A stretch of 64,000 nucleotides of DNA from a virus (lineage: Duplodnaviria > Caudoviricetes), in the IMG/VR virus record IMGVR_UViG_2930438282_000003, positions 46,358-110,357 of that record; one strand, given 5' to 3'. The number at the start of each line of letters is the position of its first letter. Within the stretch, counting starts at the first letter, position 1. Positions 6,331 to 59,193 of this stretch are shown one piece after another. Position numbers and translations under genes: made by a program. The notes under the pieces were generated by a model. That model worked only from the letters and a program-made list of their open reading frames with translations. It did not search any database and was not told the origin of the DNA.

Positions 6331-6370
6331 TAAGATCCTCGCTAGACGACTGCTGGTTATGGGCCGGGTC
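6331..6370 (+). promoter_or_regulatory. Late element 1: -10 TAAGAT + hairpin gact-GCTGGTTATGGGCCG-ggtc
   Basis: Repeated motif (core at 6352) upstream of the major capsid gene. Confidence 0.8.
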
Positions 6371-6399
6371 TTCCAGATCGATCGCTGGAGAACCTGCCC

Positions 6400-8055
6400 A
6401 TGGACGACTTCCAGATTCCCGAGGACATCCGCGCTCTCGACGACGCCCAACTCGCTGAGGCGCTCGCCGGCGCCACCCAGGCCTTCCAGGCCCTGTCGTC
6501 CCAGACCCGCATCGACGACTCGACGATGGGGCAGCTGCGTGCCCTGTCGACGTGCGTTCAGGACATCCGGCAGGAGCAGTCCGACCGTATCTCCGCCGCC
6601 GAGGCCGCCGCCGACGAGATCGAGCAGCTCGCCGCGCAGGTCCGTGGAGACGACCCGGCTGCCCACGTCGAGGAGACCCCGGCCGAGCCGACCACCGCCG
6701 CAGCCGAACCCGCGGCCGAGCCCGGCCCGGCCGCTTCCGAGCCGGCCAACGAGCCGCAGGCCACCGCGACCGCCTCCCTTGCCCGCCCCTCCCTCGACCT
6801 GTCCCTGGTGAGGCGCCGTCAGACACGCGTCCTCCCGGAGCCGCCCGCCCCGGGCACCGTCATCACCGCCGCCGTCGACGTCCCCGGCTACACGCCAGGC
6901 GCCGAACTCGACTTCAACCAGGTCACCGCGGGCGTCATCTCCCGCGCGAACGCCCTGAAGACCGCCGGTGGTGGCCTTGGACAGGTCATCAGCTACCACC
7001 ACCCGTACCCGGAGGAGCTGATCGTCACGGACTCCTCGTCGGCGCCCGAGGGCACCGAGGTGGCGCTCCGCGCGGCCGACCAGTCTCGCCTCCCCGAGAA
7101 GGACCTCGTGGCGTCCGGAGGCTGGTGCGCGCCGTCAGAGACCGTGTACGAGCTGACGTCGGTCGCCTGTCCCGACATGCTGTGGGACGCGCCGGAAATC
7201 CAGCTCGCCCGTGGCGGCCTGCGGTACTACAAGACGCCGTCGCTGGACGTCGCGGCGATGACGTTCGTGCACACCGAGGCCGACGACATCTCCGGTGCGA
7301 CGAAGCCGTGCTTCAAGATCCCGTGCCCGGACCCGGTGGAGATGCGCTGTGACGCGGTCGGTGTCTGCCTGGAGGCGGGCATCCTGACTCAGCGCCACTT
7401 CCCGGAGCTGGTCAACTGGTACCTGCGGAACGCGATGGTGGCGCACGAGATCCGCCTCCGCTCGGTCCTATTCTCGCAGGCCCTGGCCACCGCCACCCCC
7501 GTCACCCTCACGGAGACGTTCGGCGCGATCTCGGCGATCTTCGCGGCCGTCGCCCTACAGGCCGCCGACATGGTCGAGCGCCACTCGTTCTGTGACTCGA
7601 TCTCCCTGGAGGTCGTGTTCCCGTGGTGGTCGCGGAACCTGTTCCTCGCCGACCTGGCGCGCCGTAACGGCGTCAGCATCGACGAGGTCACCACCGCCGA
7701 CGTGCAGAGCGTATTCCGGCCGCTCGGGGTCCGCATCCAGTGGGCGCGGAACCTGATCGCCCCGAACGTCACCGGCGCGACGATGGGCCAGACCGCCCCG
7801 GCGACGGCCTGGCCTGCCGAGATCAAGTTCCTGATCTACCCGTCCGGCCAGCTGCAGATCGGCCGTGGCGAAGAGGTCAACCTCGGCGTCATCCACGACT
7901 CGACGAAGTTCTCCACCAATGACTACACCGCGCTGTTCTCGGAGGAGTGTGTCGGTCTCGTGGACCGCTCCGTCGACACCCGCGTCGTCACCGTTCCCGT
8001 CTGCCCGTCCGGTGAGACCGGCGCGCAGACCCTGATGGCCTGCCCCGCAGCCTGA
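6400..8055 (+). CDS. Major capsid protein with N-terminal scaffold-like domain
   Basis: Coiled-coil, Ala/Pro-rich N-terminus. LVASGGWCAPSETVY motif recalled from actinophage siphovirus capsids. Followed by a hairpin terminator. Confidence 0.85.
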   Translation: MDDFQIPEDIRALDDAQLAEALAGATQAFQALSSQTRIDDSTMGQLRALSTCVQDIRQEQSDRISAAEAAADEIEQLAAQVRGDDPAAHVEETPAEPTTAAAEPAAEPGPAASEPANEPQATATASLARPSLDLSLVRRRQTRVLPEPPAPGTVITAAVDVPGYTPGAELDFNQVTAGVISRANALKTAGGGLGQVISYHHPYPEELIVTDSSSAPEGTEVALRAADQSRLPEKDLVASGGWCAPSETVYELTSVACPDMLWDAPEIQLARGGLRYYKTPSLDVAAMTFVHTEADDISGATKPCFKIPCPDPVEMRCDAVGVCLEAGILTQRHFPELVNWYLRNAMVAHEIRLRSVLFSQALATATPVTLTETFGAISAIFAAVALQAADMVERHSFCDSISLEVVFPWWSRNLFLADLARRNGVSIDEVTTADVQSVFRPLGVRIQWARNLIAPNVTGATMGQTAPATAWPAEIKFLIYPSGQLQIGRGEEVNLGVIHDSTKFSTNDYTALFSEECVGLVDRSVDTRVVTVPVCPSGETGAQTLMACPAA

Positions 8056-8074
8056 CCCCTCGCCCGCCCCATCA

Positions 8075-8109
8075 CGTGCCGGGCCCGTTCCTGACGCGGG
8101 CCCGGCACG
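8075..8109 (+). terminator. Hairpin after the capsid gene
   Basis: CGTGCCGGGCCCG / CGGGCCCGGCACG 13-bp stem. Confidence 0.7.
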
Positions 8110-8137
8110 CCCCGATTTGAAGAGACGGAGGCGCGCA

Positions 8138-8980
8138 ATGGCTGCCGGCCTGCGGAAGTACGTCGAGGCCATCCCCGGCAGGCCTCTGCCGCACGGGATC
8201 CTCCTCAACACCTGTACTGACGTCCGTGACGTCACCGACGAACACGAGCTGCTCGGCATCGAATGGCTCGGCTTGGGCTGCTGCCCGGTCAACGTGTGGC
8301 GCGACCCGTGCACCGACGAGTCCCTCGGGGGCGAATCGCCGGGCCAGCCGCCGCAGAAGGAGTTCTGCAGGCCGACCGCTGAGCACGCCGACCCGATCAC
8401 GGTGTACGCGGGCGCCGAGTGCTCCACGATGGGCTGGACGTACGCGGAGGCCCGCACCCACGCCGAGGCGTCGTTGGAGCTCGGCGAGCAGGAAGCCGTC
8501 GAGGCCGGGTTCTGGACGAACACGTTGGCCATGACCGCGCAGGACCTCACCCCTGCGGCCGGGCCGGTGAACATCGCCCAGGGCGTGGCCGCGCTGGAGG
8601 GCTGCCTGGCCGAGCAGTACGGCGGCGTCGGCACACTCCACGTCCCGGCCGGCGCTGCCGCGGTGCTGGGCTGCTGCAACCTCGTCCACCGCGACGGGAA
8701 CGGCTCGTTGAGCACGCTCGCGGGGAACTGCGCGGTGATCGGCGCCGGATACAGCGCCATGAACACCGGCCCCGGGAACATCCCGGCCGATCCGGGCACG
8801 GCGTGGCTGTACATCACCGGGCCGGTCGTCGTGCGGCGCGGTCCGACCGTGACGATCCCGGACCGGCCGGGAGCGTCGGTGAACATCCGCACGAACGACC
8901 TCAGGGTTCTGGTCGAGCGGTCGTACGTCGTGGCCACGACCTGTGTGGTCTGCGCGATCCAGGTGGTGACTTGTCCATGA
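8138..8980 (+). CDS. Cys-rich virion protein (minor capsid/decoration candidate)
   Basis: ATG 8138 after GGAGG. Directly follows the capsid gene. High GC3. Confidence 0.7.
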   Translation: MAAGLRKYVEAIPGRPLPHGILLNTCTDVRDVTDEHELLGIEWLGLGCCPVNVWRDPCTDESLGGESPGQPPQKEFCRPTAEHADPITVYAGAECSTMGWTYAEARTHAEASLELGEQEAVEAGFWTNTLAMTAQDLTPAAGPVNIAQGVAALEGCLAEQYGGVGTLHVPAGAAAVLGCCNLVHRDGNGSLSTLAGNCAVIGAGYSAMNTGPGNIPADPGTAWLYITGPVVVRRGPTVTIPDRPGASVNIRTNDLRVLVERSYVVATTCVVCAIQVVTCP

Positions 8981-18503: not shown

Positions 18504-18546
18504 CGCGGACCACCCTGCCTCACCCCACGCCGCCCGAGGAGGGCTC

Positions 18547-19031: not shown

Positions 19032-19034
19032 CCA

Positions 19035-19340: not shown

Positions 19341-19349
19341 CAACACAGC

Positions 19350-19384
19350 AAGACTTCACGACGCCGCTGGTTATGGGCCGGGCG
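19350..19384 (+). promoter_or_regulatory. Late element 2: degenerate -10 AAGACT + cgcc-GCTGGTTATGGGCCG-ggcg
   Basis: Repeated motif, core at 19366. Confidence 0.75.
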
Positions 19385-19411
19385 ACCCCCTTCACCACAA
19401 GGAGCCTGCTC

Positions 19412-22300
19412 ATGGCTGCATGCTGCGGAGCACCGCGCTGCAACTGCCGCGTCACCGCCGGCCCGGGCGTCACCGTGGACGGCAACGGTTCCGCGGCGAC
19501 CCCGTACGTCATCTCTGCCGACTCAACAACACCGACTGCGGTCCAGGCCGCCGACACCGCGACCGTGGACACCACCGTCGCAGGGAGCGGAACGACGGCC
19601 GATCCGTACATCGTCAGCTCGGACGTCATCCTCGACCCTGCGCCGCCCGGAGGCGGCAGCAACCTCCTCCAGCCCGGCGCGGACGGCCTGTACGTCGAGT
19701 GCGCTGACGTCCGGACGTGCTTCTCGGCCGGGGACGGCGCCACCTACGACCCGGCCACCGGGGAGTTCGCAGCCCGTCCCTCGACGGATGCCGGGAACCT
19801 CGTCACCTTCGGCACCGACGGCGGACTCCTGGCGACCGCCACGGCTGCCGACCCGACCGCGGTCGACGGAGGGGACACCCCGACCGCGCACACCAGCGTG
19901 ACCGGCACCGGCACAGCCGGGGACCCGTACGTCGTCACCACAGACGTCGTCCTGGACCCTGCCCCACCCGGTGGGGGAAGCAACCTCGCGCATGCCGGGG
20001 CTGACGGCCTGTACGTCGAGTGCGCCGACGTCCGGTCCTGCCTGTCCGCCGGGGACGGCATCACCTACGACCCCGCGACCGGTGAGATCGCCGCGAACAT
20101 CTCCGGCGACGCCGACAACACCACGGTGATCGGCACAGACGGCGGGATCTACACCCCTGCCGCCTCGACCGCCGTCCAGGCAGGCGACACCGACACGGTC
20201 GACGTCACCGTGGAGGGCACCGGCACCGCGGCCGACCCGTACGTGGTCAGCTCCGACGTCAAGCTCGACTCCAACCCGCCGCAGGGCGGCACGAACCTGA
20301 TCGGCTCCGGTCCCGACGGCCTGTTCGTCGAGTGCGCCGATGTCCGGACGTGCTTTACGGCTGGCGACGGCGCCACCTACGACCCAGTCACAGGGGAGAT
20401 CGGCGCACACGTCTCCACCGACTCGGGTAACCAGGTCACGATCGGCAGCGACGGCGGCCTCTACGCGGCAGGCGGAGGAGGTGGCACGACCACCGTTGTC
20501 ACGGCCGGGGACACCCCGACGGCGAACAACACCGTGAGCGGCACCGGCACCTCCGGGGACCCGTACGTCGTCAGTACGGACGTCGTCCTGGACTCGGCCC
20601 CGCCCGGCGGTGGCTCCAACCTGCTGCAGTCCGGTACCGAGGGCCTGTTCGTGGAGTGCGCGGACGTCCGGACGTGCTTCACAGCTGGCGACGGCGCCAC
20701 CTACGACCCGTCGACCGGCGAGATCGGCGCGAACATTTCCGGCGACACCGGCAACACCACGGTGATCGGGACGGACGGCGGGATCTACACCCCAGCCGCC
20801 GCGACGGTACTCGAGGCCGCCGACACTCCGACCGTCGACGTCACTGTGAGCGGCACGGGCAGCACCGCTGACCCGTACCAGGTGGCCGCTGCCGTCATCC
20901 TCGACCCGACGCCTCCGCAGGGCGGCACGAACCTTCTGCAGGCGGGCCCCGAGGGGCTGTTCGTGGAATGCGCCGACGTGCGCGGCTGCCTCACGGCGGT
21001 GGACGGCATCGCCTACGACCCTGCCACCGGGGAAATCGAGGCGCGCCCGTCGACCGATGCAGGCAACATCGTCACCTTCGGGACGGACGGCGGCCTCTAC
21101 GCCACTGGGGGAGGCGGGACGGCCACGGTCGTGCAGGCCGGAGACACCCCGACGGCGAACAACACCGTGAGCGGCACCGGCACCTCTGGGGACCCGTACG
21201 TCGTCAGCACGGACGTCGTCCTGGACCCCGCCCCACCCGGCGGTGGCTCCAACCTGCTGCAGTCCGGTGCCGACGGCCTGTTCGTGGAATGTGCCGACGT
21301 GCGCAGCTGCCTCACAGCCGGGATCGGCATCACCTACGACCCGGCCACCGGCGAGATCGCCGCGAACATCTCGACCGATGCCGGGAACACCACGGTGATC
21401 GGCACGGACGGCGGCCTCTACACCCCGGCCGGCTCAACTGCCCTCGTGTCCGCCGACACGAGCACCATCGACACCACCATCACCGGCAATGGCACGGCCG
21501 GGGACCCGTACACGATCGAGGCCGACGTGATCGTGGCGCCGGACCCGAACGGCGTGGAGGTGGCCGCGAACGGCCTCCTCGTCGCCCCGTCGGCCGACGC
21601 CGGTAACCAGCTCGCGTTCGGCGCCGACGGCCGCCTGTTCGTCCCGGAGGACCCGCCGCTGGAGATCGGCTGCGGTCTCCAGGGCGACGGCACGGCTGCT
21701 GCCCCGCTCGCCGCGTTCCCGATCGCCGGGCTGACCGCGTGGGCAGACAGCTGGGCCTGCACCGACACCGACCACTCCACGCTCAAGTGCGACCCCGACA
21801 CGGGCGCCCTGTGGACGCCGCCAGAGCACTTCTCGGCCGCCGACCACCTGTACCAAGAGCACATGAACCCGGTCGTGGCCAACCAGGGCCCGACGGGAGG
21901 CTGGGCGTTCCTCCAGCCGGGCGGCGCCGCCGCGGTCCTCTCGTTCAACGTGCCGGGCAACTTCCTGGGCAACCAGTGCCGCAAGTGGTCCTACTCGTCG
22001 CACTGCCACGGCTCCATCGACATCAGCTACAGCTCCACGGCGACGTTCCAGGTCGGCTACATCTACCAGGAGAACGGCGCCGCGCTGCAGATCCGCCCCC
22101 TGTGGGGCATCCTCACGGCGGCCGGATCTGCCCGCCGAGAGCGGTACTCGGGCAGCACCGCCGAGACCGCCTTCGACGTTCTCCCGGCCAACGGCGTCAC
22201 CCTGAACTACTTCGCAGCGATCAACGTCACCGCCGGGACGATCACGATCAACAGCTGGACGTCCGACGGCACGATCCACACCACCACGCAGTCCAGCTAG
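19412..22300 (+). CDS. Tandem-repeat fibre-like protein (about 6.5 x ~100 aa)
   Basis: AAGGAG RBS before ATG 19412 (MAACCG). Repeats GTGT..DPY..LDPAPPGGGSNLL..GLFVECADVR.C..GDG.TYDP.TGEI. Confidence 0.85.
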   Translation: MAACCGAPRCNCRVTAGPGVTVDGNGSAATPYVISADSTTPTAVQAADTATVDTTVAGSGTTADPYIVSSDVILDPAPPGGGSNLLQPGADGLYVECADVRTCFSAGDGATYDPATGEFAARPSTDAGNLVTFGTDGGLLATATAADPTAVDGGDTPTAHTSVTGTGTAGDPYVVTTDVVLDPAPPGGGSNLAHAGADGLYVECADVRSCLSAGDGITYDPATGEIAANISGDADNTTVIGTDGGIYTPAASTAVQAGDTDTVDVTVEGTGTAADPYVVSSDVKLDSNPPQGGTNLIGSGPDGLFVECADVRTCFTAGDGATYDPVTGEIGAHVSTDSGNQVTIGSDGGLYAAGGGGGTTTVVTAGDTPTANNTVSGTGTSGDPYVVSTDVVLDSAPPGGGSNLLQSGTEGLFVECADVRTCFTAGDGATYDPSTGEIGANISGDTGNTTVIGTDGGIYTPAAATVLEAADTPTVDVTVSGTGSTADPYQVAAAVILDPTPPQGGTNLLQAGPEGLFVECADVRGCLTAVDGIAYDPATGEIEARPSTDAGNIVTFGTDGGLYATGGGGTATVVQAGDTPTANNTVSGTGTSGDPYVVSTDVVLDPAPPGGGSNLLQSGADGLFVECADVRSCLTAGIGITYDPATGEIAANISTDAGNTTVIGTDGGLYTPAGSTALVSADTSTIDTTITGNGTAGDPYTIEADVIVAPDPNGVEVAANGLLVAPSADAGNQLAFGADGRLFVPEDPPLEIGCGLQGDGTAAAPLAAFPIAGLTAWADSWACTDTDHSTLKCDPDTGALWTPPEHFSAADHLYQEHMNPVVANQGPTGGWAFLQPGGAAAVLSFNVPGNFLGNQCRKWSYSSHCHGSIDISYSSTATFQVGYIYQENGAALQIRPLWGILTAAGSARRERYSGSTAETAFDVLPANGVTLNYFAAINVTAGTITINSWTSDGTIHTTTQSS

Positions 22301-24258: not shown

Positions 24259-24338
24259 TAGAATCCGTACTAGGTAAGCCGCTGGTTCTGGGCCGGGCTC
24301 CCCACCACGTTTCACGCTGCTGGTTGTGGGCCGAGGCG
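24259..24338 (+). promoter_or_regulatory. Late element 3 (tandem): -10 TAGAAT + two hairpin copies
   Basis: Cores at 24281 (agcc..ggct flanks) and 24319 (cgct..aggcg flanks). Confidence 0.8.
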
Positions 24339-24361
24339 ACACCTTGGTGTTGGAGGGCCCC

Positions 24362-25057
24362 ATGAGCTGTCCCCTGATCAGCAACCTGGACACCGTCCGC
24401 GTGACCCGGCTGGACTCTTGCGGTCGCCCGGTCTGCGGCGAGGACAACGGCTTCGTCTTCGACTGCCTGGCGTCCATCGCGATGAACCCCAATGTCGACG
24501 AGGGCGACGACATCTCGTACAAGGCCGCCAACGGGCGGCAGTGCGGGTTCCGCAAGGGCTGCCCGACGTTCAACGGCTACGACCTGGAGATCAACTTCTT
24601 TTCGGTGTCGCCCGAGTTCATTGAGATCACGACCGGCAACCCGGTCGTGTTCGGCTTCGACGGCAAGCCGATCGGCTACGACGACTGCTCCGTGCAGTGC
24701 CGCACCGGTTTCGCCCTGGAGTTCTGGGCGGACGCCCTCGGCGAGGACGTCTGTGAGGCCGAAGGCACCGGCGGGGCCTGGCTGTATTACCTGATCCCCT
24801 GGGTGACCAACGGCCTGCTCGGCGACCTGGAGATCGGCAGCGAGGCCGTCACGCTCCAGCTGACCGGTGCCAGCCGCTCCGGTGGCGGCTGGGGCACGGG
24901 CCCGTACGACGTGATGCCGACCGACATGGCCGGAACCCCCGGCAAGATGCTCACCCCGGTCGGATCGTCCTGCCACCGACGCTACTTCCTCACGTCGGTA
25001 CCGCCGCCCGAGCCGGTCTGCGACTACACGCCGGTTCTCTGCTCGACATCGCCGTGA
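24362..25057 (+). CDS. Major tail (tube) protein
   Basis: GGAGG RBS. VRVTRLDSCGRPV N-terminus recalled from actinophage tail tubes. WGTGPYDV motif. Confidence 0.7.
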   Translation: MSCPLISNLDTVRVTRLDSCGRPVCGEDNGFVFDCLASIAMNPNVDEGDDISYKAANGRQCGFRKGCPTFNGYDLEINFFSVSPEFIEITTGNPVVFGFDGKPIGYDDCSVQCRTGFALEFWADALGEDVCEAEGTGGAWLYYLIPWVTNGLLGDLEIGSEAVTLQLTGASRSGGGWGTGPYDVMPTDMAGTPGKMLTPVGSSCHRRYFLTSVPPPEPVCDYTPVLCSTSP

Positions 25058-29194: not shown

Positions 29195-29233
29195 TACTCT
29201 TGCTCGGCACGCCGCTGGTTTTGGGCCGGGCGT
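29195..29233 (+). promoter_or_regulatory. Late element 4: -10 TACTCT + acgcc-GCTGGTTTTGGGCCG-ggcgt
   Basis: Repeated motif, core at 29214. Confidence 0.8.
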
Positions 29234-29258
29234 TCGCGCGGGAGACAAGGGCACGCCC

Positions 29259-29813
29259 GTGGCAGAGAAACTGTTCAGCTTCAACACCCAGCCGCACGTG
29301 GCGAAGCTCGGCGACAGCGCCGAGCTCCACTTCATCCCGGAAGTGTTCGGGGACCAGTTCCTGGACGGCTACAAGAAGATCCAGGACGCCCGGGAGAAGA
29401 TCAGCGGCCAGACGGACCTGACGGCCCTGTCGTCGGAGGAGCTGCGGTCGCTGTACGCGGCGATGCGGACTTTCCTGGCCGGGCTGATGACGCCCGAGTC
29501 GGCGGCGGAGTTCCTCCGCTTCGAGGTCATCAAGGGCGGCAAGACGGTCGCGGACTTCCGGTCCCGGGACGAGGCCGACGCCCACGCGGCCACCGTCACC
29601 GGGGCGAGGGTGGAGGACAAGTCGATGCGGCTGCCGGACCGCGTCCTCACCGAGCTGCTGGAGTGGGTCACCGAGCTGTACGGGGGCGGTGATAGCCGCC
29701 CTACTGGACCGTCGAGCGGATCCTCGCGAGCGTCGCGGAGGGCTGGGGCTCCTTCGAAGGCCAGCTCGCGCTCCAAGGGGTCGACGTCCACGCGTGGCGC
29801 CTCCGCACGCTGA
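29259..29813 (+). CDS. Tail assembly chaperone (G-type)
   Basis: Precedes the tape measure. ELYGG..RPT followed by a low-complexity tail. Confidence 0.75.
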   Translation: MAEKLFSFNTQPHVAKLGDSAELHFIPEVFGDQFLDGYKKIQDAREKISGQTDLTALSSEELRSLYAAMRTFLAGLMTPESAAEFLRFEVIKGGKTVADFRSRDEADAHAATVTGARVEDKSMRLPDRVLTELLEWVTELYGGGDSRPTGPSSGSSRASRRAGAPSKASSRSKGSTSTRGASAR

Positions 29814-30034: not shown

Positions 30035-30070
30035 TAGTCTGAGATCGCCGCTGGTTCTGGGCCGGGCATC
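30035..30070 (+). promoter_or_regulatory. Late element 5: -10 TAGTCT + gcc-GCTGGTTCTGGGCCG-ggc
   Basis: Repeated motif, core at 30050. Confidence 0.8.
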
Positions 30071-30095
30071 ATCACGACCTTCGTGAGGGTGCCCG

Positions 30096-33000
30096 ATGGC
30101 CGGCGAGGATATCGACTACGGCCGCGCGGTCATCCGGATCGACGTCGACGACCGCGACGCCGAATCCGATGGCCGGGTTGCCGGAACGCAGCTCCAGCGG
30201 GCGCTACTCCGCTCGACGCGGCGCATCGGCGAGCAGATCCACCGCCAGATCCAGCGGGGTCTGAACGCCACGGCGCTCACGGTGCGGGTCGAGCCGGATC
30301 TGCGGCGCTTCGATGCGCAGTTGCTGAACGGGCTGCGGGGGATCGATTCCCTGAACGTCCCGGTGGTGCCGGACGTCACCGGGTTCGAGGAGCGGCTCCG
30401 TGCCCTGCTGGCGGGCATTGAGATCCCGGTCCGTGTCGTCCCCGACCTCGATGACTTCGACGCGCGTATCCGGGCGCACAGGCCGCCGGATGTCACGGTC
30501 CGCGCGAACGTCGACGTCGATTCCGACCGGCTCACCCGCTCTCTCGCCCGCCTGGGCGGGATCGCGAGCCGCGTCGGTGGGGCCCTGAGCGGCCTGCTGC
30601 GCCTGGGGGCGATCGGTATCGCTGCGGCGAGCGCCGCCCAGGGCGTTGCGGTGTTGGGGGCGGCGCTCGCCCCGGCCCTGGGGATCATCGCCGCGGGTCC
30701 GGCTGCGATCGCCGGGTTCCAGGCCGCGCTGGGTGCGTTGAAGCTCGCGCTGATGGGCGTCAGTGACGCCTTCTCCGCCGCACTGACCGGTGCCGCCGAT
30801 GAGTTCCAGAAGTCGCTGGAGAACCTGTCGCCCGCCGCGCAGGCAGCGGCCCGCGAGGTCCGCGCTCTCAAGCCCGCTTTCGACAACCTCCGTAACAGCG
30901 TCCAGGACGCGTTCTTCGAGAAGATCGAAGGGGACATCACCCGCACCGCGAACGCCCTGAAGGGGCCGCTGAAGTCGGGGCTGACGAGCATCTCCGCCGC
31001 GTGGGGTGCCGCCGCCAAAGGTGCTCTCGGCTACGTGCAGGGCGCCCAGGGCGTCGCCAACGTCAAGTCGATCCTGGGCGGCACCGCGCAAGCCGTCAAC
31101 GGCCTGTCGCAGACGACGAACAAGCTCACCGCGGGCCTTCTGCAGGTGGCCGCCGTCATCTCCCAGCGGTTCGGCGGTGAACTCGAAAGCGGCATCTCCC
31201 GGCTCGGTGAGCGCTTCGGCACCTTCCTGCAGGAAGCGGCCCAGGGCGGCGACGCGGTCCGCTGGGTCGACAACGCGCTCACCGTGTTCGCGCAGCTCGG
31301 CGGTATCGCGCAAAACGTCGGGAGCATTCTGAGCGGCGTCTTCCAGGCCGCCAACACCTCTGGCGGGGGCCTGCTCAACAACATCCAGACGATCACCGGC
31401 GCGTTCTCCGACTTCGTCAACTCGGCCGCCGGTCAGACGGCGATCACGAACGTCCTCCGCACCGTCGCCCAGATCGCGGCGCAGCTCGGCCCGATCCTGT
31501 CGGCGCTGGTCACACAGCTCGGGGGGATCGCTCCCGCTCTCGGCCCGATCTTCACCGCGCTCGGGCCCGTCTTGGTCAACCTCATCAACGCGCTCGGCCC
31601 GGCCCTTGCGCAGATCGCGCCCGCGCTGGCGACGGTTGGCCAGGCCCTCGCCGAAGGCCTCGGCCAGATCGACTTCGGGCCGCTGGGGACGGCGATCGCC
31701 TCCGCCGTCAGCGCCCTGGCGCCTCTTCTGCCGCTCGCCGGGCAGCTCGTGACCGTCCTGGCCCAGGCCCTCGCTCCAACCCTTCAGGTCCTGGCTGCTG
31801 CTCTCGCGCCGGTCATCTCCTCGCTGGTCGACGCGCTGATGCCGGTTCTTCCGCCCCTGACGCAGGCGTTCGTGACGCTGGTTCAGGCTCTGATGCCGCT
31901 GGCCACGGGCATCGGCCAGGCGCTGGCGTCGCTGATCGGCGGTCTCGCCCCGGTGATGCTCAGCCTGGGTCAGGCCCTCGCTCAGGTCGCGACCGCTCTG
32001 GCACCGGTCATCACGCAGCTCGTCGGCGCGCTGCTGCCCGCTCTACCGCCCATCGTCGACGCTCTGAACGCGCTGCTCCAGGCGCTGATCCCGCTCCTGC
32101 CGTCCCTGGCCGGACTGATCGCTGCTGTGGCGCCACTGGTCGTCATGATCATCCGGCTTGTGGCGCCGGTCCTGCAGATCGCCGCGGCGTTCGCCTCGTG
32201 GGTCGTGATCAACGCGGTCGTGCCGATCATCCAGGGCGTCGTCGGGGTCCTCACCGGCCTGGTGTCCGGCGTCTCCTCGGTGATCACGTTCATCACCCAG
32301 CTGCCCGGCCTGATCATGTCCGGGCTGTCCTCGTTGGGCTCGCTGCTGGCGTCGTTCTTCTCCGGCCTCTTCACGACCGTCGGCACGTACCTGACCACCG
32401 GATTCCAGGCCGTGGTCGGTTTCTTCACCCAGCTCCCGGGGCTGATCCTCGCCGGACTGCAGGCCCTGCCCGGGCTGCTGATCAACGCGTTCACCACTGC
32501 CATCGCCGCCGTGGGAATCGCCATCCTCACCGCGATCGCCGCGATCGTGTTCATCTTCACCGAGCTGCCTGGCCGGATCGCCAGCGCCCTCGTATCGCTG
32601 GGCGCCACGATCATCAGCGCCTTCACCTCCGGGTTCAGCGCGGCGACATCGGCGATTGGCTCGTTCATCTCCTCCGCCGCGTCGTTTTTCGCCCCACTGC
32701 CCGGGCGGATCGCCGGTGTGCTGGCCGCCCTCCCGGGCCGGCTGGCGTCCATGTTCCGGTCGGCGGGCTCGTCCGCGCTGGGCGCCGCCCAGTCGTTCGG
32801 CTCGTCGGTCGTCAGCTTCTTCTCCGGGCTGCCCGGCAGGATCGCGAGCGCCCTGTCCAGCGTCGGCAGCCGCCTCGCTGGCGTCTTCCGAAGTGCTGCC
32901 GGTTCCGCGCGCAGCGCCGTATCGAGCCTGATCTCAGGCATCGTGTCGCTGTTCTCCGGGCTCGGTAGCCGGATCGTGGGGGCGCTCGGCAACATCGGCG

Positions 33001-36754: not shown

Positions 36755-36815
36755 ACCGGCGTGATGGGCCGATCATGGCTAGGCGGACGCCGCGACAGTT
36801 GGGAGGGGACAGTTA

Positions 36816-37984
36816 CTGACTTCGGCGTCGTAGGGTCTGGGTATTCGTCGGGCCTGGTGACGGTGTCCGCTTTGGCTGGTACCCCGGAGGTATGCGGTAC
36901 GCAGATGGGGGCGGGCTGACCGCCGAGCAGCGCAAGCGCCGCGAAGAGATAAGGATGCAGGCCGTCGAACTCTTCGAGGAGCGTGTGAAAGTCCCGCGCA
37001 TCGCCCGGGAGTTACGGGTGAGCGAGAAGTCCGTCTACCAATGGCGCCGTGCCTGGAAGACAGGCGGGCGGGAAGCCCTGCGGTCCAAGGGGGCCCCGGG
37101 CTACGACTGTCGGCTCGGACCCCACCTTCAGGCCAGACTCGCCGCCTGGCTGGACGAAGGACCGGCCGCACACGGCTGGACGGAGGACCAGGTGTGGACC
37201 GCCGCCCGGGTACGCACACTGATCGGGCGGAGGTTCCACATCTCCTACAGCGTCTCCGGGGTGACCCGGCTGCTGCACCGGATGGGCTACAGCGTGCAGA
37301 TGCCTGCCCGGCCCGCCGCCGAGCGCGACGAGGACGCGATCACCGCATGGCGGGAGGCGACCTGGCAGGAGGTAAAACCCTTAGGGCGGCGACCGGCGCC
37401 TTCATCTGCTTCGAGGACGAAGCAGGCGTGACCGGCCGTCCGCCCAAGGGCCGCACCTGGGGCCGACGCGGGATCACCCCGACGGTGCGCGTTCCCGGGC
37501 GCAGCCGTGGCCGCCTGTCGGTGGCCGGGTTGCTGTGCTTCAAGCCGGGCCTTCCCGCCCGCCTGTGCTACCGGCTACGCCGGCACACCGGCCGCAAGGA
37601 CGAGCGCCGCTCGCTGGGCGAGAGCGACTACATCCACCTGCTGGATGGCGCCCACCACCTGCTCAAAGCCCCACTGATCGTGGTGTGGGACCGGCTGAAC
37701 ACTCACATCTCCAAGACGATGCAGATGCTCGTGGCGCAGCGCGAGTGGCTGACGGTGGTGCTGCTGCCCGGATACGCGCCCGAGCTCAATCCGGTCGAGG
37801 GCATGTGGGCACACATCAAACGGAGCCTGGCCAACCTGGCCGCCCGCCCCCTCAGCAACCTCGAGACCCTGCTCCGCAGACGGCTCAAGGCACTGCAGTA
37901 CCGGCGCGCCCTCCTTGACGGATTCCTCGCCGGAACGGGCCTCACTCTCGACAGACCGGACTGACCCTACGACGCCGAAGTCAG
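36816..37984 (+). mobile_element. IS630-family element, apparently complete, with TA target duplication
   Basis: Perfect 22-bp IRs CTGACTTCGGCGTCGTAGGGTC (36816-36837 and 37963-37984). TA at 36814-15 and 37985-86. Confidence 0.92.
36892..37964 (+). CDS. IS630 transposase (wHTH ORF + DDE ORF joined by a -1 frameshift near GGTAAAACC, ~37372)
   Basis: FEDEAG, VVWDRL and LPGYAPELNPVEGMW motifs. Confidence 0.85.
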
Positions 37985-38017
37985 TAACCTGGTTGTGCTG
38001 CTGGTTCTGGGCCGGGC
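37985..38017 (+). promoter_or_regulatory. Late element 6: -10 TAACCT + gct-GCTGGTTCTGGGCCG-ggc
   Basis: Core at 38000. The TA of the -10 box is the IS630 target duplication. Confidence 0.8.
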
Positions 38018-38044
38018 TGCCACCCACTTCGGGGAGGTCCCGTC

Positions 38045-39085
38045 TTGGCCGTTGCAGGGTGCGGAAGCCACACGTACCGCGTGGTAGACCGGTCGGGGGC
38101 GACCGTCGCCACTGGGTCTGTCCTGGCCGAAGTGGAATGGGTGCGCCTGCTGGACGACACGTCTACGGCGCGCGTCGTCATCAATCCGGACGGCGACTGC
38201 TGCGAAGCTCTGGGCCGGGTCCGGTCGTGGAGGCACCGGCTGCTGATCTACCGGGACGGCGAGTTCGTGTGGGACGGGCCGATCATCACGCCGTCCTGGT
38301 CGCTGGGGCAACTGGAGATCCGGGCCGCTGACATCGGCGCGTGGCTCGACCGCAGGGTGCCGCACGAGTCGATTACCTTCGGCTCCACCGATCTGGCCGA
38401 CATCGCCGAGTGGCTGATCGAGGATGCCTTCGCACCCGACGACCCGGGGTACCAGGTTGTGAAGATGGCCCCGGCCGGGGTGACCGGCGGGCGCCGCTAC
38501 ATCAAGGACGTCGGTCAGTCCGGCGACCACCTGCGGGCGCTGGCGGAGACCGGCCTCGACTACACCATCGTCGGCCAGTCGATCATCCTGCTGCCCGAGG
38601 ACTGGCGGGAGAGCGTCGGCCGCCTGTCGGACGCCGACCTGCCCGAGGGCCTGGAAGTCACCGAGGACGGCACGAACCTGGCGACCCGCTGGGTCGTCGC
38701 CGGCGACGACGAAGGCGACGTCCTCGGCGAGGCAGGCGACGCGGACGAGTACTACGGGTTGCTGGAGCGGTACGTGGAGGACACCTCGATCACGGACGAC
38801 GCGTCGGCGACGTCGGCGGCCCGGGTCAAGGTCCGCACGAGTCTGCCCGTGCCGGTGTTCATCGACAGCCAGGACGTCACCCTGTCCCCGGAGGCAGCCA
38901 TCGACGTGCCGAAGCTCGTACCGGGCTGGTGCCTGGACGTCACCAGCAACACGACCTGCCGCACGATCACCCAACGCCTCAAGATCGTCGGCGTGAAGGT
39001 GACCGAGGAAGGCGGCACAGACGCCCAGCCGGGCGCGGAGCGCGTACAGGTGCAGTTGGCGGCAGCCGGATCGGAGGCGTCCTGA
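38045..39085 (+). CDS. Minor tail (Tal/baseplate hub-like) protein
   Basis: GGGGAGG + TTG. WVRLLDDTS.A, LIYRDGEFVWDGPI and YGLLERY motifs of siphovirus tail proteins. Confidence 0.75.
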   Translation: MAVAGCGSHTYRVVDRSGATVATGSVLAEVEWVRLLDDTSTARVVINPDGDCCEALGRVRSWRHRLLIYRDGEFVWDGPIITPSWSLGQLEIRAADIGAWLDRRVPHESITFGSTDLADIAEWLIEDAFAPDDPGYQVVKMAPAGVTGGRRYIKDVGQSGDHLRALAETGLDYTIVGQSIILLPEDWRESVGRLSDADLPEGLEVTEDGTNLATRWVVAGDDEGDVLGEAGDADEYYGLLERYVEDTSITDDASATSAARVKVRTSLPVPVFIDSQDVTLSPEAAIDVPKLVPGWCLDVTSNTTCRTITQRLKIVGVKVTEEGGTDAQPGAERVQVQLAAAGSEAS

Positions 39086-39538: not shown

Positions 39539-39575
39539 TACCCTGCTTGGCGTCGCCGCTGGTTGTGGGCCGGGC
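39539..39575 (+). promoter_or_regulatory. Late element 7: -10 TACCCT + gcc-GCTGGTTGTGGGCCG-ggc
   Basis: Repeated motif, core at 39558. Confidence 0.8.
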
Positions 39576-39604
39576 CGCAGTCTCCTCGAAGGAGCGGCCC
39601 CGCC

Positions 39605-40330
39605 ATGGCCTCATCAGTTTGTGTGTGCGACACGTACTTCACCGTCGACGACGACGGTTCGCTCTGCCTGATCCCCGGACAGCAGGGCCTGCGGGAGATC
39701 TTGTACTTCAAGAACCCAGGCAACTTCCAGTTCAAGAAGGCCGACTACCCGTGGCTTGCCCGCGTGCGGGTCAAGGTCCAAGCCGGTGGCGGCGGAGCAC
39801 CGGGAGCAGCGTCCGCCGCGAACCAGATGGTGGCCCAGATCGGTGGTACGGGCGGCGGCTACTCCGAATCCCTCCTCGACGTCTCCGCTCTCGGCGCGGT
39901 CGAGACCATCGTGGTCGGCGCGGGCGGATCCGCCGGTTCGGCCAACACGGACGGCGGCTCGGGCGGCAACTCGAGCTTCGGCGGTCTCGTCTCCGCCAAC
40001 GGAGGAGGCGGCGCACCACAGACCATGGAGTCCGGCTCGGACGTGGGCGCATTCTCGGGCATCGCCGGGGCCCCTCCCGGGACCGGCCAGCTCGCCATCG
40101 GCGGCGGCCCCGGTGGTGGCTCGCTCCGCCTCTCCGGTTTCCAAGGCCAGTCCGGCGAGGGCGGCAGCAGCCAGCTCGGGCACGGCGGCCAGCAGCGGTC
40201 GTCGTCCAACCCTGGCGGCGCGCCACGCGGATACGGCGCCGGCGCGGCCGGAGCTCTAGCGCGCGCAGGGGACAGCGTGGGCGGCACCGCGGGCAGCGGA
40301 GGCATCGTCATCATCGAGCTGTATGGATGA
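39605..40330 (+). CDS. Glycine-rich tail fibre-type protein
   Basis: AAGGAG RBS. QAGGGGA..GGGYSE..VGAGG..GGNSSFG..GIVIIE Gly-rich domain. Confidence 0.8.
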   Translation: MASSVCVCDTYFTVDDDGSLCLIPGQQGLREILYFKNPGNFQFKKADYPWLARVRVKVQAGGGGAPGAASAANQMVAQIGGTGGGYSESLLDVSALGAVETIVVGAGGSAGSANTDGGSGGNSSFGGLVSANGGGGAPQTMESGSDVGAFSGIAGAPPGTGQLAIGGGPGGGSLRLSGFQGQSGEGGSSQLGHGGQQRSSSNPGGAPRGYGAGAAGALARAGDSVGGTAGSGGIVIIELYG

Positions 40331-43001: not shown

Positions 43002-43037
43002 TAGACTCAATGGTGCGCCGCTGGTTGTGGGCCGGGC
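43002..43037 (+). promoter_or_regulatory. Late element 8: -10 TAGACT + gcc-GCTGGTTGTGGGCCG-ggc
   Basis: Repeated motif, core at 43020. Confidence 0.8.
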
Positions 43038-43067
43038 CAAGACAAATCCCCGAGGACGGTGGGCACC

Positions 43068-43904
43068 TTGGCCAGATGCGGATGCGGCGGCGGGCAATGC
43101 AGCTGCTCGATCGCCGCCGGCGACAACGTGGCACTCAGCGGTTCCGGCAGCGTCGCCAACCCCTACGTGCTCTCCGCCTCGCTAAGCTGCGAGGAGGTGC
43201 GCCAGTGCCTGTCCGGCACGGGCGGGGTCGAATACAACCCGGGTACCGGCGCCATCAGCGCAGACCTGTCCGGGCAATCTGGGAACAACCTGACCCTCGG
43301 CCCGGACGGCGGGCTGTTCGTGCCGACCGGTGCCGCCACGGTGAGCGTGGGGTGTGGCCTGACCGGCAACGGCTCCGGAGGTACCCCTCTGGAGGTATCG
43401 ACGGGTACGTGGCCGTACGCGTGCGGCGCGGACACTAGCGGCGGGGTCGTCGTCTGCGACAGCAGCGGCCAGCTTCGGTCTGAGCCGCGAGGGCGGGTTT
43501 CCTACCAGCAGTTCTTCGACTCGAGGGATTACTCGGACATCACGGTCCCCACCGCGCAGAACACGACTGCCGACACCTTCTCGATGACGGTCACCAACCC
43601 GGACCCGTGCCGGGACGCCTTCGTGCTGGTCGAACGTGAAGCGGACGTCTTCTTCGTCCTCCCCGCCGGGGGTGGCGCCGGGTGCGGCTACGAGGGCGAC
43701 GAGATGTATTACACCCGCAACACTGGCTCTTCCAGCATTGTCGGCGCGCACGCCCAGACCACCAAGGTGCTGGCCAACCCGGGGCTTCTGGCCCCGGGCG
43801 CGAGTACTCCTATCGGGTTCGCTGTGACAGTGGGCCGTGGCAGCGGCGGCGCCTACTACTACCGGATTGAGGTCGCCATCCGGGCCATGATCATCAGCCT
43901 GTGA
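43068..43904 (+). CDS. Short fibre-like protein, paralogue of 19412..22300
   Basis: MARCGCGGGQCSC..GSGS..NPYVLS, CEEVRQCLS..YNPGTG.I, GCGL.GNG. Start is TTG 43068 or GTG 43059. Confidence 0.75.
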   Translation: MARCGCGGGQCSCSIAAGDNVALSGSGSVANPYVLSASLSCEEVRQCLSGTGGVEYNPGTGAISADLSGQSGNNLTLGPDGGLFVPTGAATVSVGCGLTGNGSGGTPLEVSTGTWPYACGADTSGGVVVCDSSGQLRSEPRGRVSYQQFFDSRDYSDITVPTAQNTTADTFSMTVTNPDPCRDAFVLVEREADVFFVLPAGGGAGCGYEGDEMYYTRNTGSSSIVGAHAQTTKVLANPGLLAPGASTPIGFAVTVGRGSGGAYYYRIEVAIRAMIISL

Positions 43905-44280: not shown

Positions 44281-44381
44281 GATGCAGCTTGGCGTCGGGA
44301 TGACTGGCCCGCGGTCGAGAACGGGGGTGAACCGCGGGCCGTCAACTCCAGTAGAAGTACTCGTCTCCGGGACCCAGCCGG

Positions 44382-46575: not shown

Positions 46576-46746
46576 GACTCAACCGTCAGGGATCTCACTC
46601 AACTCTTGCCGAGCGGCGATGACGACCGGGCACGCGTCGCGGACTTCGATGTGGACGTAGCCGTAGTGGTGGCGTCCGAGAGTGCCATAGGCAGAAGCAC
46701 GCATGGCGTCGCTGGCTGAAGACGTGCAACCTTTCGGAGGGGACGG

Positions 46747-49707: not shown

Positions 49708-49773
49708 CAGGCGGTCCCCCTTGCTAGGACTTCGGAGCCTGACCCGACGGCCCCCCGCAGGTCTATCGCTCGT

Positions 49774-49797
49774 ATGTGTGGACGAATGTGTGGACGA
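49774..49797. repeat. 12-bp tandem repeat in the intergenic region
   Basis: ATGTGTGGACGA x2, upstream of the GT-C gene. Confidence 0.5.
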
Positions 49798-49819
49798 TGT
49801 GCCGGATGATAGGCCATTT

Positions 49820-50989: not shown

Positions 50990-51170
50990 TGAGAGGTAAA
51001 TCACTCCTCGTAACCTGTCACGATCTTGTGTCCTACACGTTTCCGTGCCGGATAGATGGCGATTTGCCCAAATCTTCTCGCAAGCCCTCACGAAAGACCG
51101 AAAAAAATCCGTACTATCTTCACTCGGTCGAAGGAAGTTTTAATCATCAACCGCCCGGGGGGGCACAGGA

Positions 51171-55593: not shown

Positions 55594-55630
55594 ACCGTAG
55601 GGGTTCGTCTGCAAGGAGGTGCCGCACATC

Positions 55631-57726: not shown

Positions 57727-57734
57727 GCGGGACG

Positions 57735-58241
57735 GTGGGTGGACGTCATGCGCTTCCCACGCGGTCGGGGAAGCTGTCCCGTGAGATCGCAAAGTTCGGC
57801 CTGGTGGGGGCATCGGGGTTCGTGGTCAATCTGGGAGTCTTCAACCTCGTCAGAGCCGCCACCGACTGGCAGCCTGTCCGGGCGAGCGTCCTAGCGACGG
57901 CTGTCGCGATCATGACCAATTATCTCGGCCTGCGCTACTTCACCTACCGGCATCACACTCGGGATGACCGGGCCGACCGGAAGAAGGAGTTGGGGCTCTT
58001 CCTCTTCTTCAGTGCAGTCGGTCTGGTCATCGAGAACGGGATCCTCTATGTGATCACCTACGGATTTGGCTGGGACGGCACGCTTGCCAACAACGCTGGC
58101 AAGTTCATCGGCATCGGCATAGCGACTCTCTTCCGCTTCTGGTCCTACCGGACGTGGGTCTTTGCCGCATCTGCCTCCGCTACCCGGTTGCCGGAGCCAG
58201 CGCCTGTGCCTCTTCCCGGTGGAGGGTCTGGCGTAAGGTGA
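57735..58241 (+). CDS. GtrA-family flippase-like membrane protein
   Basis: KFGLVG...NY...FTY...FRFWSYRTWVF. Confidence 0.88.
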   Translation: MGGRHALPTRSGKLSREIAKFGLVGASGFVVNLGVFNLVRAATDWQPVRASVLATAVAIMTNYLGLRYFTYRHHTRDDRADRKKELGLFLFFSAVGLVIENGILYVITYGFGWDGTLANNAGKFIGIGIATLFRFWSYRTWVFAASASATRLPEPAPVPLPGGGSGVR

Positions 58242-58345
58242 ACTCGGTCAGATCGTCACTAACCTTGAAGACCGACGTGTTCGGCTATGGCCTCTTTCTA
58301 AGCAGGCGACTTGCACGTGTCAGTGGATATTTCCTTGTGTGATGC

Positions 58346-58810
58346 TCAGACCCCGATCACGATTTTCTCGATCACTCGGCCAAGCTCGCTGTCATCTACG
58401 TTTTTAGACAGGTGCACGGTCGCCTTGACGGTCGGAATCCTGAACTGGACGCCAGAAGCCGATGTGTCGACGAGGACAGCGTTCTCTCGAACTTCGAGCG
58501 ACAGTTGCTCCCAGGTGATTATCCCGGAGAATTCGAGAGCGAATCCTTTTTCACACTCCTCGGCGAGACCGGGGACCTCGACCAGTCGATGCGGATGCAC
58601 GGCCAGCCAGTGGCACGCCCAGTCGGGTTCATCACCGAAGGTGACTTCTACCAGCCCGAAGTCGAGCCTCAGATAGCGGTGTTTGCTGCCATGCAACTGC
58701 CGCACATGGGCTCCAAGACGTTCCTCAACGTCCTCTAGCAACGACCCGGCACCTACACCCAGGAATCTCCCGGTTACGAGGGCACGCGAGATATCTTCCC
58801 TACCGAACAT
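58346..58810 (-). CDS. Hypothetical protein, orphan immunity-like
   Basis: Lower GC. LRLDFGLVEVTF motif. Upstream decayed ORF on the same strand. Confidence 0.5.
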   Translation of the reverse strand: MFGREDISRALVTGRFLGVGAGSLLEDVEERLGAHVRQLHGSKHRYLRLDFGLVEVTFGDEPDWACHWLAVHPHRLVEVPGLAEECEKGFALEFSGIITWEQLSLEVRENAVLVDTSASGVQFRIPTVKATVHLSKNVDDSELGRVIEKIVIGV

Positions 58811-59154
58811 GCAATCACCCCAGCGCTTTCAGGGCCCGGATCCCGCCTTCTCGAGAGGGGTGTTCATGATTTCATCGCTTGGGTCGCCTTGGCGATGAAG
58901 TTGGCTCGCAGCGCAGGGCTGACCTTGATCGCCTCGATTGTGGCGCCGATTTCGGCCTGAGTGGTGAGACCCGCCGTCACGTTGCTGGCCTGACCCGCTT
59001 GACCTTCTTCTCTACCTTCAGCAGGAGAGTCGTCAGCATCGGATTGGTCAAGTCGTGTACGCGTCCCTCGCGTGACACGACTCGACACGCGGCGCGATCG
59101 CCCAACTCCCTCGCTGGCCAGCTCATGTAGTCAGCCGTGGACAGTGCGGAAAGC

Positions 59155-59193
59155 TAGACTCTCTCGAAGCCGCTGGTTCTGGGCCGGGCGAGA
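59155..59193 (+). promoter_or_regulatory. Late element 9: -10 TAGACT + gcc-GCTGGTTCTGGGCCG-ggc
   Basis: Core at 59172, upstream of the lysis genes. Confidence 0.8.

Follow-up and report, generated by a model that had tools for sequence, protein, structure and literature searches.

What is the use, for a phage, of a short sequence repeated in a single orientation in front of its virion and lysis genes? The question is raised by the last 64 kb (64,000 nucleotides, hereafter the window) of the 110,357-bp provirus record IMGVR_UViG_2930438282_000003, a Streptomyces-type prophage in which a core of 15 nucleotides, GCTGGTTNTGGGCCG, occurs ten times. We find that this core belongs to an RNA hairpin of fixed geometry, restricted to late genes and widely conserved, and that the cis-acting RNA leader cassette in which it stands is real, widespread and apparently undescribed as far as the sources are searchable. 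The cassette would be made of three parts: a host-type promoter reduced to a -10 box, TAnnCT, without -35; an RNA hairpin of 21–23 nt (hairpin 1) starting about 0–4 nt after the predicted transcript start; and a gene-specific hairpin (hairpin 2) abutting the former, whose 3' arm would hold the Shine-Dalgarno sequence (SD), followed by the start codon. We lean, somewhat more than not, to the idea that hairpin 1 is a cis-acting tag on the late mRNAs, read by a factor and controlling translation and/or 5' stability in the manner of the Com/mom system of phage Mu.

The repeated core, its phages and its fold

The ten positions listed by the original prediction, an earlier reading of the letters alone, are all exact matches and all on the + strand (6352, 19366, 24281, 24319, 29214, 30050, 38000, 39558, 43020 and 59172), when each of 100 dinucleotide shuffles contains none. 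Tolerating two mismatches adds one unrelated site only, on the - strand at 367. The full provirus has the same ten copies, at 52,709-105,543 of the record, and its first 46 kb are devoid of them. As had been noticed, position 8 alone varies, and takes the four bases (A twice, C four times, G three times, T once). The copies are intergenic, as claimed: all lie outside the gene calls, which were based on G+C content at third codon positions, and stand 28–33 nt 5' of a start codon (66 nt for the first copy of a tandem pair), each between a TAnnCT-type -10 box and this codon. They head many separate late units, each with its own copy, another point on which the first reading was right. The products are, in order, the major head protein, a 962-aa protein of no informative family, the major tail protein, a protein resembling gp26 of Streptomyces phage TurkishDelight, the tape measure protein, a minor tail protein, a tail-fibre-like protein, a 281-aa protein and an Amidase_2 endolysin. 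Thus the proposal that every copy precedes a structural or lysis gene holds for seven of the nine tagged units, whose function is known or assigned as such; the two others, those of the 962-aa and 281-aa proteins, have no assigned function.

TurkishDelight is the nearest named relative, with a DNA identity of only 72% over the tape-measure region. It carries seven exact and two one-mismatch copies, all on the + strand and all within its structural module (12.9 to 30.6 kb), at places orthologous to those of the window, tandem pair included. IMG/VR, scanned for exact matches, gave at least 119 stretches (counts for the family are among the matches listed), hence, after addition of the window and TurkishDelight, 171 unique sites with sufficient flanks. 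A TAnnnT hexamer is found 6–22 nt upstream in 100 of these 171, against a chance expectation of about 7% in DNA of 68% G+C, and 95 have in addition an SD and an open start codon downstream. Leader sites were picked by promoter box and start context only, stem pairing being no criterion; the remaining sites, lone matches within coding DNA, were used as a negative set.

A scan of prokaryotes, at one genome per species, returned at least 120 stretches; among the matches listed, leader-type sites belong to Streptomyces, Kitasatospora, Embleya, Nonomuraea, Sphaerisporangium, Planomonospora and Planotetraspora, and chance matches occur besides in unrelated phyla. Five whole genomes (7–13 Mb) have 8, 5, 7, 3 and 1 copies, on a single strand each, with none for the reversed control pattern. 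In those with several copies, all are confined to one stretch of 5–49 kb, the size of a prophage, and none occurs elsewhere. The original prediction had considered that the motif might be common across the host genome; this single, one-strand cluster per genome indicates on the contrary that it is phage-specific, and not a regulatory word of the host. The leader also follows its gene: among relatives of the major tail protein it is present in 41 of 41 loci at 52% identity or more (one cut by a contig end) and in none of 20 at 40% or less, where the gene and its predecessor are tightly coupled. The cassette family is that of temperate actinomycete siphophages with a TurkishDelight-like virion module.

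The motif had not been recognised as a described element, and the searches agree. Rfam 15 gives no match over the whole window at gathering score; at E ≤ 1, seven motif-centred loci give three chance microRNA matches, none of them at the motif (position 1501-1515). Absent from Rfam, it would constitute a new RNA family. Literature searches with the exact motif strings, the name TurkishDelight and Streptomyces-phage late-gene motifs found nothing relevant in searchable main texts, supplements, subscription journals and PhagesDB cluster notes being outside their scope.

The RNA nature of the element comes from its flanks. The three flank pairs beside the core are paired at 96–98% in alignment A1, which comprises 104 sequences and 100 distinct rows: out of 300 cells, 17 are double-sided compensations, 22 are G·U and 8 are unpaired. 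These pairs are mostly G:C, C:G and C:G, replaced respectively by A:U (6 cells), U:A (3) and U:A (8). None of 500 shuffles reaches the covariation or the paired fraction of A1, and sliding the 3' partner by one column lowers pairing from 92% to 51–56%. At the first pair T:G is seen 17–18 times and C:A twice; this strand-specific wobble agrees with pairing in the + strand RNA and disagrees with a palindrome of double-stranded DNA (dsDNA). A structured RNA hairpin on the + strand, which had been proposed from the ten window copies and their flank pairs (all present as listed), is therefore well founded. The outer stem, however, covaries over three pairs and not further, a fourth being formed at only 39 of the 100 distinct sites.

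The core behaves differently: over about 100 exact-match sites 14 of its 15 positions are invariant, bulges and loop included, while the stem flanks vary. Invariant bulges and loop beside covarying stems argue for a sequence-specific recognition. Since exact-match sites have by construction an invariant core, diverged cores were reached through loci anchored on the major tail protein. In GGTGGCGTTAGGCCC and GTTGGTGATAGGCCA, two diverged leaders of orthologous major-tail genes, the pair 2:15 changes from C:G to G:C and U:A; in class B cores (GCTGGCGGTAGGCCG and similar) the pair 6:12 changes from U·G to C:G; and positions 7 and 10 switch jointly from U/G to G/A in diverged leaders. Tape-measure leaders begin their core with G(A/T)C in place of GC, a one-nucleotide insertion in the G1 bulge, and keep the gcc/ggc stem.

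RNAfold, applied to isolated 25-mers, gives most leaders a common fold of about -7 kcal/mol. Positions -3 to -1 pair with +1 to +3 in the outer stem, G1 is bulged, C2 pairs with G15, U3 is bulged, and G4:C14, G5:C13 and U6·G12 (with or without U7·G11) lead to an apical loop, UNUGG or GNUAG, the whole hairpin being of 21–23 nt. The fold first proposed, UGGUU against GGCCG with a 5' GC bulge, has thus to be revised, because C2:G15 covaries (C:G, G:C, U:A) and is paired by RNAfold; G1 and U3 are single-nucleotide bulges. A covariance model (R1) built from the invariant alignment did not recover the diverged variants, and an exact scan for the variant core returned three already-known leaders plus chance matches, nothing more. 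A third variant of the core, GCTGGTG(C/T)TAGGCCG flanked by acc/ggt, stands in two proviruses without zinc-ribbon genes (G014 and G015; L344 9082 and L346 8477), about 1.5 kb upstream of a match to the portal gene. The portal unit may be tagged too in some relatives.

Promoter box, ribosome site and the nine leaders

The -10 box is real, since position 5 of the hexamer, which was unused in site selection, is C in 78 of 92 sites. The 36 nt upstream of the hexamer hold about 0 bits of information, in line with the lack of a shared -35 in the first reading. From hexamer to core the spacing is 9 nt in 21 sites, 10–13 nt in 55 and longer in 19, a range of 9–17 nt across the family; it is never 6–8 nt although such spacings were searched. 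If transcription starts 7 nt after the hexamer, the minimum spacing makes +1 coincide exactly with the base that begins the outer stem, and the predicted 5' overhang is 4 nt or less in 82% of 95 sites. Hairpin 1 would therefore stand at the predicted transcript start or within a few nucleotides of it, much as had been supposed. The nine window hexamers and their spacings of 9–16 nt are also as originally listed, with two reservations: AAGACT lacks the first T, and TAACCT is the hexamer of an insertion sequence (IS) junction. Two groups of copies depart from this arrangement: tandem second copies are far from the predicted 5' end, and tape-measure leaders often have a further hairpin that comes after the -10 box and before hairpin 1. 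A scan of 22-41 kb for terminators and promoters found nothing above chance.

The original prediction overlooked the gene-specific hairpin 2, which, in our models, occludes the SD. The distance from the end of the core to the start codon is 24–36 nt at 84 of the 95 sites. Folded from G15 to the start codon, 84 leaders have a mean z of -1.48, versus -0.20 for upstream controls of the same length (Mann-Whitney p = 2e-6); relative to dinucleotide shuffles, z is below -2 in 42% of leaders. The 12 nt that follow the core form with the SD region duplexes of -11.8 kcal/mol when cognate, versus -9.7 kcal/mol when non-cognate (Wilcoxon p = 6e-4), and in 67% of the 84 leaders at least three of the four bases of the SD tetramer are predicted to be paired. 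Among orthologous major-tail leaders this occlusion relies on differing sequences, for example CCUCC...GGAGG or CCAAC...GUUGGAGG. Hairpin 2 begins at G15/+1, and in 79–85% of the 84 leaders it engages positions +1 to +3, the very bases forming the 3' arm of hairpin 1, so that the two hairpins would compete for GGC. The nine leaders of the window, with their predicted elements, are as follows.

6331..6402, + strand: leader 1 (core 6352), major head protein; -10 box TAAGAT 6331-6336; hairpin 1 6349-6369 (act/ggt), -7.1 kcal/mol; ATG 6400
6366-6395, + strand: SD-occluding hairpin 2 of leader 1, -12.2 kcal/mol, z -1.4
19350..19414, + strand: leader 2, 962-aa protein in cargo region; imperfect -10 box AAGACT at 19350; hairpin 1 19363-19383 (cgcc/ggcg); ATG 19412
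24259..24364, + strand: leader 3, major tail protein, tandem; -10 box TAGAAT 24259; hairpins 24278-24298 and 24316-24336 (gct/agg); ATG 24362
29195..29261, + strand: leader 4 (core 29214), TurkishDelight gp26-like protein; -10 box TACTCT; hairpin 1 29211-29231 (acgcc/ggcgt); marginal hairpin 2, z -1.0; GTG 29259
30035..30098, + strand: leader 5 (core 30050), tape measure protein; -10 box TAGTCT 9 nt 5' of the core; hairpin 1 30047-30067; ATG 30096
GGGCAUCA...GGGUGCCC, + strand: strong hairpin 2 of leader 5, -21.1 kcal/mol, z -4.9
37985..38047, + strand: leader 6, minor tail protein; junction -10 box TAACCT; hairpin 1 37997-38017 (gct/ggc, U·G); TTG 38045
39539..39607, + strand: leader 7 (core 39558), tail-fibre-like protein, TurkishDelight gp32-like; -10 box TACCCT; hairpin 1 39555-39575; ATG 39605
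within 39539..39607, + strand: hairpin 2 of leader 7, -17.7 kcal/mol, z -2.0
43002..43070, + strand: leader 8, 281-aa protein; -10 box TAGACT; hairpin 1 43017-43037; weak hairpin 2; TTG 43068
59155..59221, + strand: leader 9 (core 59172), amidase endolysin (Amidase_2); -10 box TAGACT; hairpin 1 59169-59189; TTG 59219
within 59155..59221, + strand: hairpin 2 of leader 9, -15.7 kcal/mol, z -2.3

Hairpin 2 is weak in the four leaders for which no z is listed. The gene after leader 1 matches phrog_777 (major head) and its product is 64% identical to TurkishDelight gp17; the gene after leader 3 matches phrog_792 (major tail), and the tandem arrangement before it is shared with the leader of TurkishDelight gp21 and with major-tail loci such as L284, L286, L290, L302, L307, L312 and L314. 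The gp26-like product is a tail assembly chaperone according to the annotation of the TurkishDelight record, and the 281-aa protein after leader 8 begins with MARCGCGGG when its TTG start is read as Met.

Possible readings of the cassette and candidate readers

How could such a cassette work? In the reading that we favour, a sequence-specific reader, in all likelihood a protein, would dock on the invariant nucleotides of bulges and loop, and one such reader would act simultaneously on all the separately promoted virion and lysis mRNAs. Once bound, it would make hairpin 1 more stable; as the GGC of this hairpin's 3' arm also forms the base of hairpin 2, the latter would thereby be loosened, the ribosome site freed and translation turned on, and the 5'-proximal hairpin might additionally shield the mRNA end. 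The most specific form of this idea, a regulon-wide translational ON-switch in which a single reader, whether a small protein from the virion module or some conserved component of the host, opens the ribosome-site hairpins of all virion and lysis mRNAs, we hold tentatively and are rather inclined to doubt. The reader is placed there in the virion module or in the host because motif-bearing phages share no regulatory genes. If the ON-switch is true, promoter, tag and lock would travel as a unit of about 70 nt and any cargo gene inserted behind a copy would join the late programme; the cargo slots and the shuffling of modules would then be accounted for.

Several observations weigh against this mechanism. 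The window hairpins 2 are uneven, with a z of -1.0 or lower in only five of nine leaders and of -2 or lower in three. When the outer stem of hairpin 1 is imposed on the modelled full leader, the average cost is about 9 kcal/mol, and accessibility increases only from 0.24 to 0.34 for the SD and from 0.34 to 0.54 for the start codon; such a weak modelled coupling argues against a simple two-state switch. The transcript start is itself a prediction drawn from the position of the -10 box, and because of the tandem second copies and the extra tape-measure hairpin a purely 5'-terminal role cannot apply to every copy. Finally, gene content common to the window provirus and TurkishDelight disclosed no reader: at E ≤ 1e-8 no non-virion protein is shared, bar two marginal cases; and the candidate that recalls Com, a zinc ribbon described below, is absent from the complete motif-bearing proviruses G014 and G015, even by profile search (A3).

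What the window and TurkishDelight do share is the portal-to-gp32 virion set, a gp37-like protein of the holin region and a partial gp49-like match. As only proteins of the virion module are shared, a phage-encoded reader would have to sit in this module, or else the reader would be a host component. Small zinc-ribbon proteins of CCCC type are found there, in the portal operon, between the portal and protease genes (window 889-1083 and 1049-1420; L009 8151-8775): a gp12-like protein of 64 aa with CxxC-x26-CxxC at 889-1083, and a paralogue at 1262-1420. The larger zinc-ribbon protein has its two halves in the reverse order in TurkishDelight gp13. Twelve elements were searched, the portal-protease region being examinable in ten motif-bearing ones, and the gp12-like ribbon was found in eight of these (the window provirus, TurkishDelight, G001-G003 and G011-G013). 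It was not found in five motif-negative relatives, but these are distant in everything, so that its absence there is uninformative.

None of the candidates was retained. The gp12-like ribbon could not be a universal reader, being missing in G014 and G015; the gp13-like one (1049-1420) is present in two of five whole genomes and absent from the portal operon of G001. The gp18-like protein is unspecific, since all five motif-negative relatives have it. The gp22-like protein is absent from these relatives, but several motif-bearing loci have no copy of it next to their major-tail gene, and it resembles a sugar-phosphate transferase of Stealth type. RNA partners fared no better. With Streptomyces 16S rRNA the best duplexes reach -22 to -24 kcal/mol, versus a mean of -21 to -22 for shuffled cores. 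Mimicry of a protein site of the rRNA is not supported either: the class A core has at best four mismatches in the Streptomyces rRNA operon, within the range of its shuffles, and the two mismatches reached by one variant core are still in the class A shuffle range. No complementary 9–10-mer that could betray an antisense or small RNA (sRNA) is common to the window provirus and TurkishDelight, one complementary match of the latter being a tRNA-derived attP region, within chance expectation. A tRNA or T-box-like partner was also rejected, ARAGORN finding no tRNA in the provirus.

Could the hairpin act without any reader? It is known that 5'-terminal stem-loops stabilise bacterial mRNAs, and hairpin 1 might simply cap late transcripts against RNase J or RNase E, hairpin 2 tuning translation passively. 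The coincidence of the hairpin base with the predicted +1, the spacing floor of 9 nt, the short overhangs, the -7 kcal/mol or so of hairpin 1 alone and the failure of shared gene content to reveal a reader would all suit this explanation, which we nevertheless find rather unlikely: a stem would suffice, yet 14 of the 15 core positions are invariant across several genera; longer spacings are not accompanied by longer stems (Spearman 0.16, p = 0.13); and the tandem second copies, like the tape-measure leaders with their extra upstream hairpin, are not 5'-terminal. Alternatively the nascent RNA might signal at the level of transcription, like nut/boxB or put, allowing terminator read-through or promoter escape in each late unit. 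The strict orientation, the promoter-proximal position and the nine to ten units with a copy each are what one would expect of it, and phages devoid of shared regulatory genes would suit a factor-independent RNA acting on the host polymerase. But the constrained distance to the start codon and the abutting SD-occluding helix point to translation, the conserved part is of just 21–23 nt when put has about 70, no boxA-like partner was seen (no search was aimed at boxA), and intrinsic terminators are not in excess in 22-41 kb (4 versus 6.5 expected, by a simple scan). We thus judge this signal unlikely, a degree more so than the passive stabiliser.

The other explanations seem to us far less credible. 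A near-invariant, asymmetric site, present in one orientation and in many copies within short intergenic gaps, could be a dsDNA operator of the stoperator type, bound just 3' of the late promoters by a phage repressor or late regulator; it overlaps the +1 of -10-only promoters that need silence in the lysogen. However, the double substitutions of the flanks keep pairing and not sequence, wobble makes sense only in the + strand RNA, the pair 2:15 flips, the distance to the -10 box varies over 9–17 nt, copies are limited to the late region, and no repressor-like protein is common to the window and TurkishDelight; we regard such an operator as very improbable. Just as poor are the chances that the promoter-hairpin unit is mainly a short homology patch for cassette swapping, comparable to the PeSL of T4-type phages. 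It is true that homology between the window and TurkishDelight is broken by unrelated cargo ending at leaders (9416-24258 before the major-tail leader; 34858-37988 before the minor-tail one), and that the genes after leaders 19366, 43020 and 59172 have no TurkishDelight counterpart. Recombination, though, needs sequence identity, and neither RNA covariation, nor a fixed distance to the start, nor SD-occluding helices; behaviour as a recombination joint would more plausibly follow, as a by-product, from the repetition of a regulatory unit. As for a target of base-pairing sRNA or 16S rRNA (toehold or enhancer), the invariance of the single-stranded loop and bulges would be in its favour, but the lack of a shared complementary stretch of 9–10 nt, 16S duplexes no better than those of shuffled cores, and the absence of both rRNA-operon mimicry and provirus tRNA leave it the least probable of all.

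The factor-read tag, which we thus prefer, would have some consequences. The timing and balance of late-gene expression in actinomycete phages are largely unknown, and the element offers a concrete handle on them: an RNA of 21 nt, from which clear predictions on mutants follow, and which precedes virion and lysis genes in hundreds of copies, in the prophages of Streptomyces and of related producers of antibiotics. Should one reader control the tag, it would be the master switch of the late programme. The cassette could besides serve the synthetic biology of Streptomyces as a compact part combining promoter, tag and lock.

Neighbouring genes and known systems

The cassette appears to mark entry points of cargo genes in the virion module. 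Three cargo blocks lie directly upstream of leaders, at 9416-22300, 34858-36754 and 44000-59000. They contain a 1876-aa repeat protein (phrog_18824), the 928-aa and 962-aa proteins without assignment, a nucleotidyl transferase, a GNAT protein and a polysaccharide set: GH12 with a ricin lectin, GT2, GH26 and two PMT_2-like proteins. The stretch before the minor-tail leader, 34858-37988, is made of the nucleotidyl transferase, the GNAT protein and the following IS.

36812..37988, + strand: IS630-type element with open reading frames for HTH (helix-turn-helix) and DDE_3 proteins; 26-bp perfect inverted ends at 36812-36837 and 37963-37988

This element adjoins leader 6 at the TA of the -10 box and lies outside the cassette proper. 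In the hexamer TAACCT (37985-37990), TAAC is within the called terminal repeat of the IS and CT is native. To judge from the letters of the junction, the TA would be a target duplication regenerating TAACCT at the right end, and the promoter of leader 6 may thus survive the insertion.

The products of genes behind leaders often begin with Cys-rich sequences, for example MARCGCG, MSCPLIAN, MAVAGCG, MASSVCVC and MAACCG (19412, 24362, 38045, 39605, 43068 and relatives). Among 84 leader-preceded genes, 40 have a Cys in residues 2–9 and 24 have CxC or CC; Cys amounts to 9.5% of residues 2–9, versus about 2% across the gene calls of the window. The small gp16-like protein (4705-4920) starts with MGCNCG. 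The gene after the major tail (25054-25770) encodes the best-conserved protein of the module, 64–80% identical in most relatives, with a weak resemblance to Stealth CR2 sugar-phosphate transferases; together with the nearby glycosyltransferases, this resemblance hints at a possible glycosylation of the virion. Further upstream, the provirus has two copies of a gp10-like membrane protein gene and of the 5' part of the portal gene, at about 27.0–27.9 kb (G000 27039-27856) and at 45.1–47.2 kb (including window 1-869), which suggests a rearrangement or two adjoining elements.

How does the cassette compare with systems already described? Lambda nut (boxB, bound by N) and HK022 put are also structured RNA signals close to the promoter, borne by the nascent phage transcript. 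They occur at one or two sites per genome, in early operons, boxB being a 5-bp stem with a pentaloop accompanied by boxA, and put a double hairpin of about 70 nt. Here, by contrast, a bulged hairpin of 21–23 nt is attached to nine or ten late units and abuts the ribosome site, and Rfam gives no match.

Stoperators are dsDNA sites for the immunity repressor, spread across the early and late arms. The 13-bp stoperators of Cluster A resemble the present motif by their asymmetry, their many copies, their location in short intergenic gaps and their single orientation, and differ from it by the RNA-type pairing and the confinement to the late region that we observe here. Identity with a stoperator is excluded by the RNA-type covariation of the flanks. 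Stoperators are credited with a part in transcription regulation (PMC3203893).

The PeSL of T4-type phages are described as composite terminator/promoter motifs that mediate indels (PMC4122927). The possible likeness is that variable cassettes are bordered by repeats of a promoter plus a stem-loop, the cargo of the window standing directly upstream of leaders. PeSL, however, combine a terminator with an early promoter and belong to the hyperplastic regions of lytic myoviruses, whereas the hairpin here comes after the promoter and heads core virion genes; it is not a terminator, has no U-tract and is linked to the ribosome site. The PeSL-like abutment of cargo is probably a side effect.

Nearer in its genomic pattern is the SAS (start-associated sequence) of Cluster K mycobacteriophages, described as a 13-bp sequence in 11–19 copies of one orientation, absent from the host genome, 3–7 bp from the start codon, containing the SD and preceding non-structural genes only (PMC3203893). 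Both are short asymmetric repeats, in a single orientation just 5' of actinophage genes, and lacking from the host genome. The motif described here is set apart from SAS by its distance of 24–36 nt from the start, by excluding the SD, by its virion and lysis genes and by following a -10 box. The inverted repeats of ESAS do not show compensation of the RNA type, whereas such changes are present here.

In Mu, Com is a 62-aa CCCC zinc-finger protein that binds a hairpin beside the translation-inhibition structure of mom and activates translation; its reading of this hairpin is specific for both sequence and structure, with a loop motif CC(N)2-3GAG (PMC6483171). Compared with this description, our phages likewise place a small conserved hairpin directly 5' of a helix that would hide the translation start signals of a late gene. 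They differ in having 9–10 units per genome against one site and one gene in Mu, and in lacking CC(N)2-3GAG, the loop being UNUGG or GNUAG; the modelled coupling of the two hairpins is weak here, and the candidate of CCCC type is found in only eight of ten examinable motif-bearing elements. Mu Com/mom is the nearest system in logic and the SAS/ESAS of Cluster K the nearest in genomic pattern.

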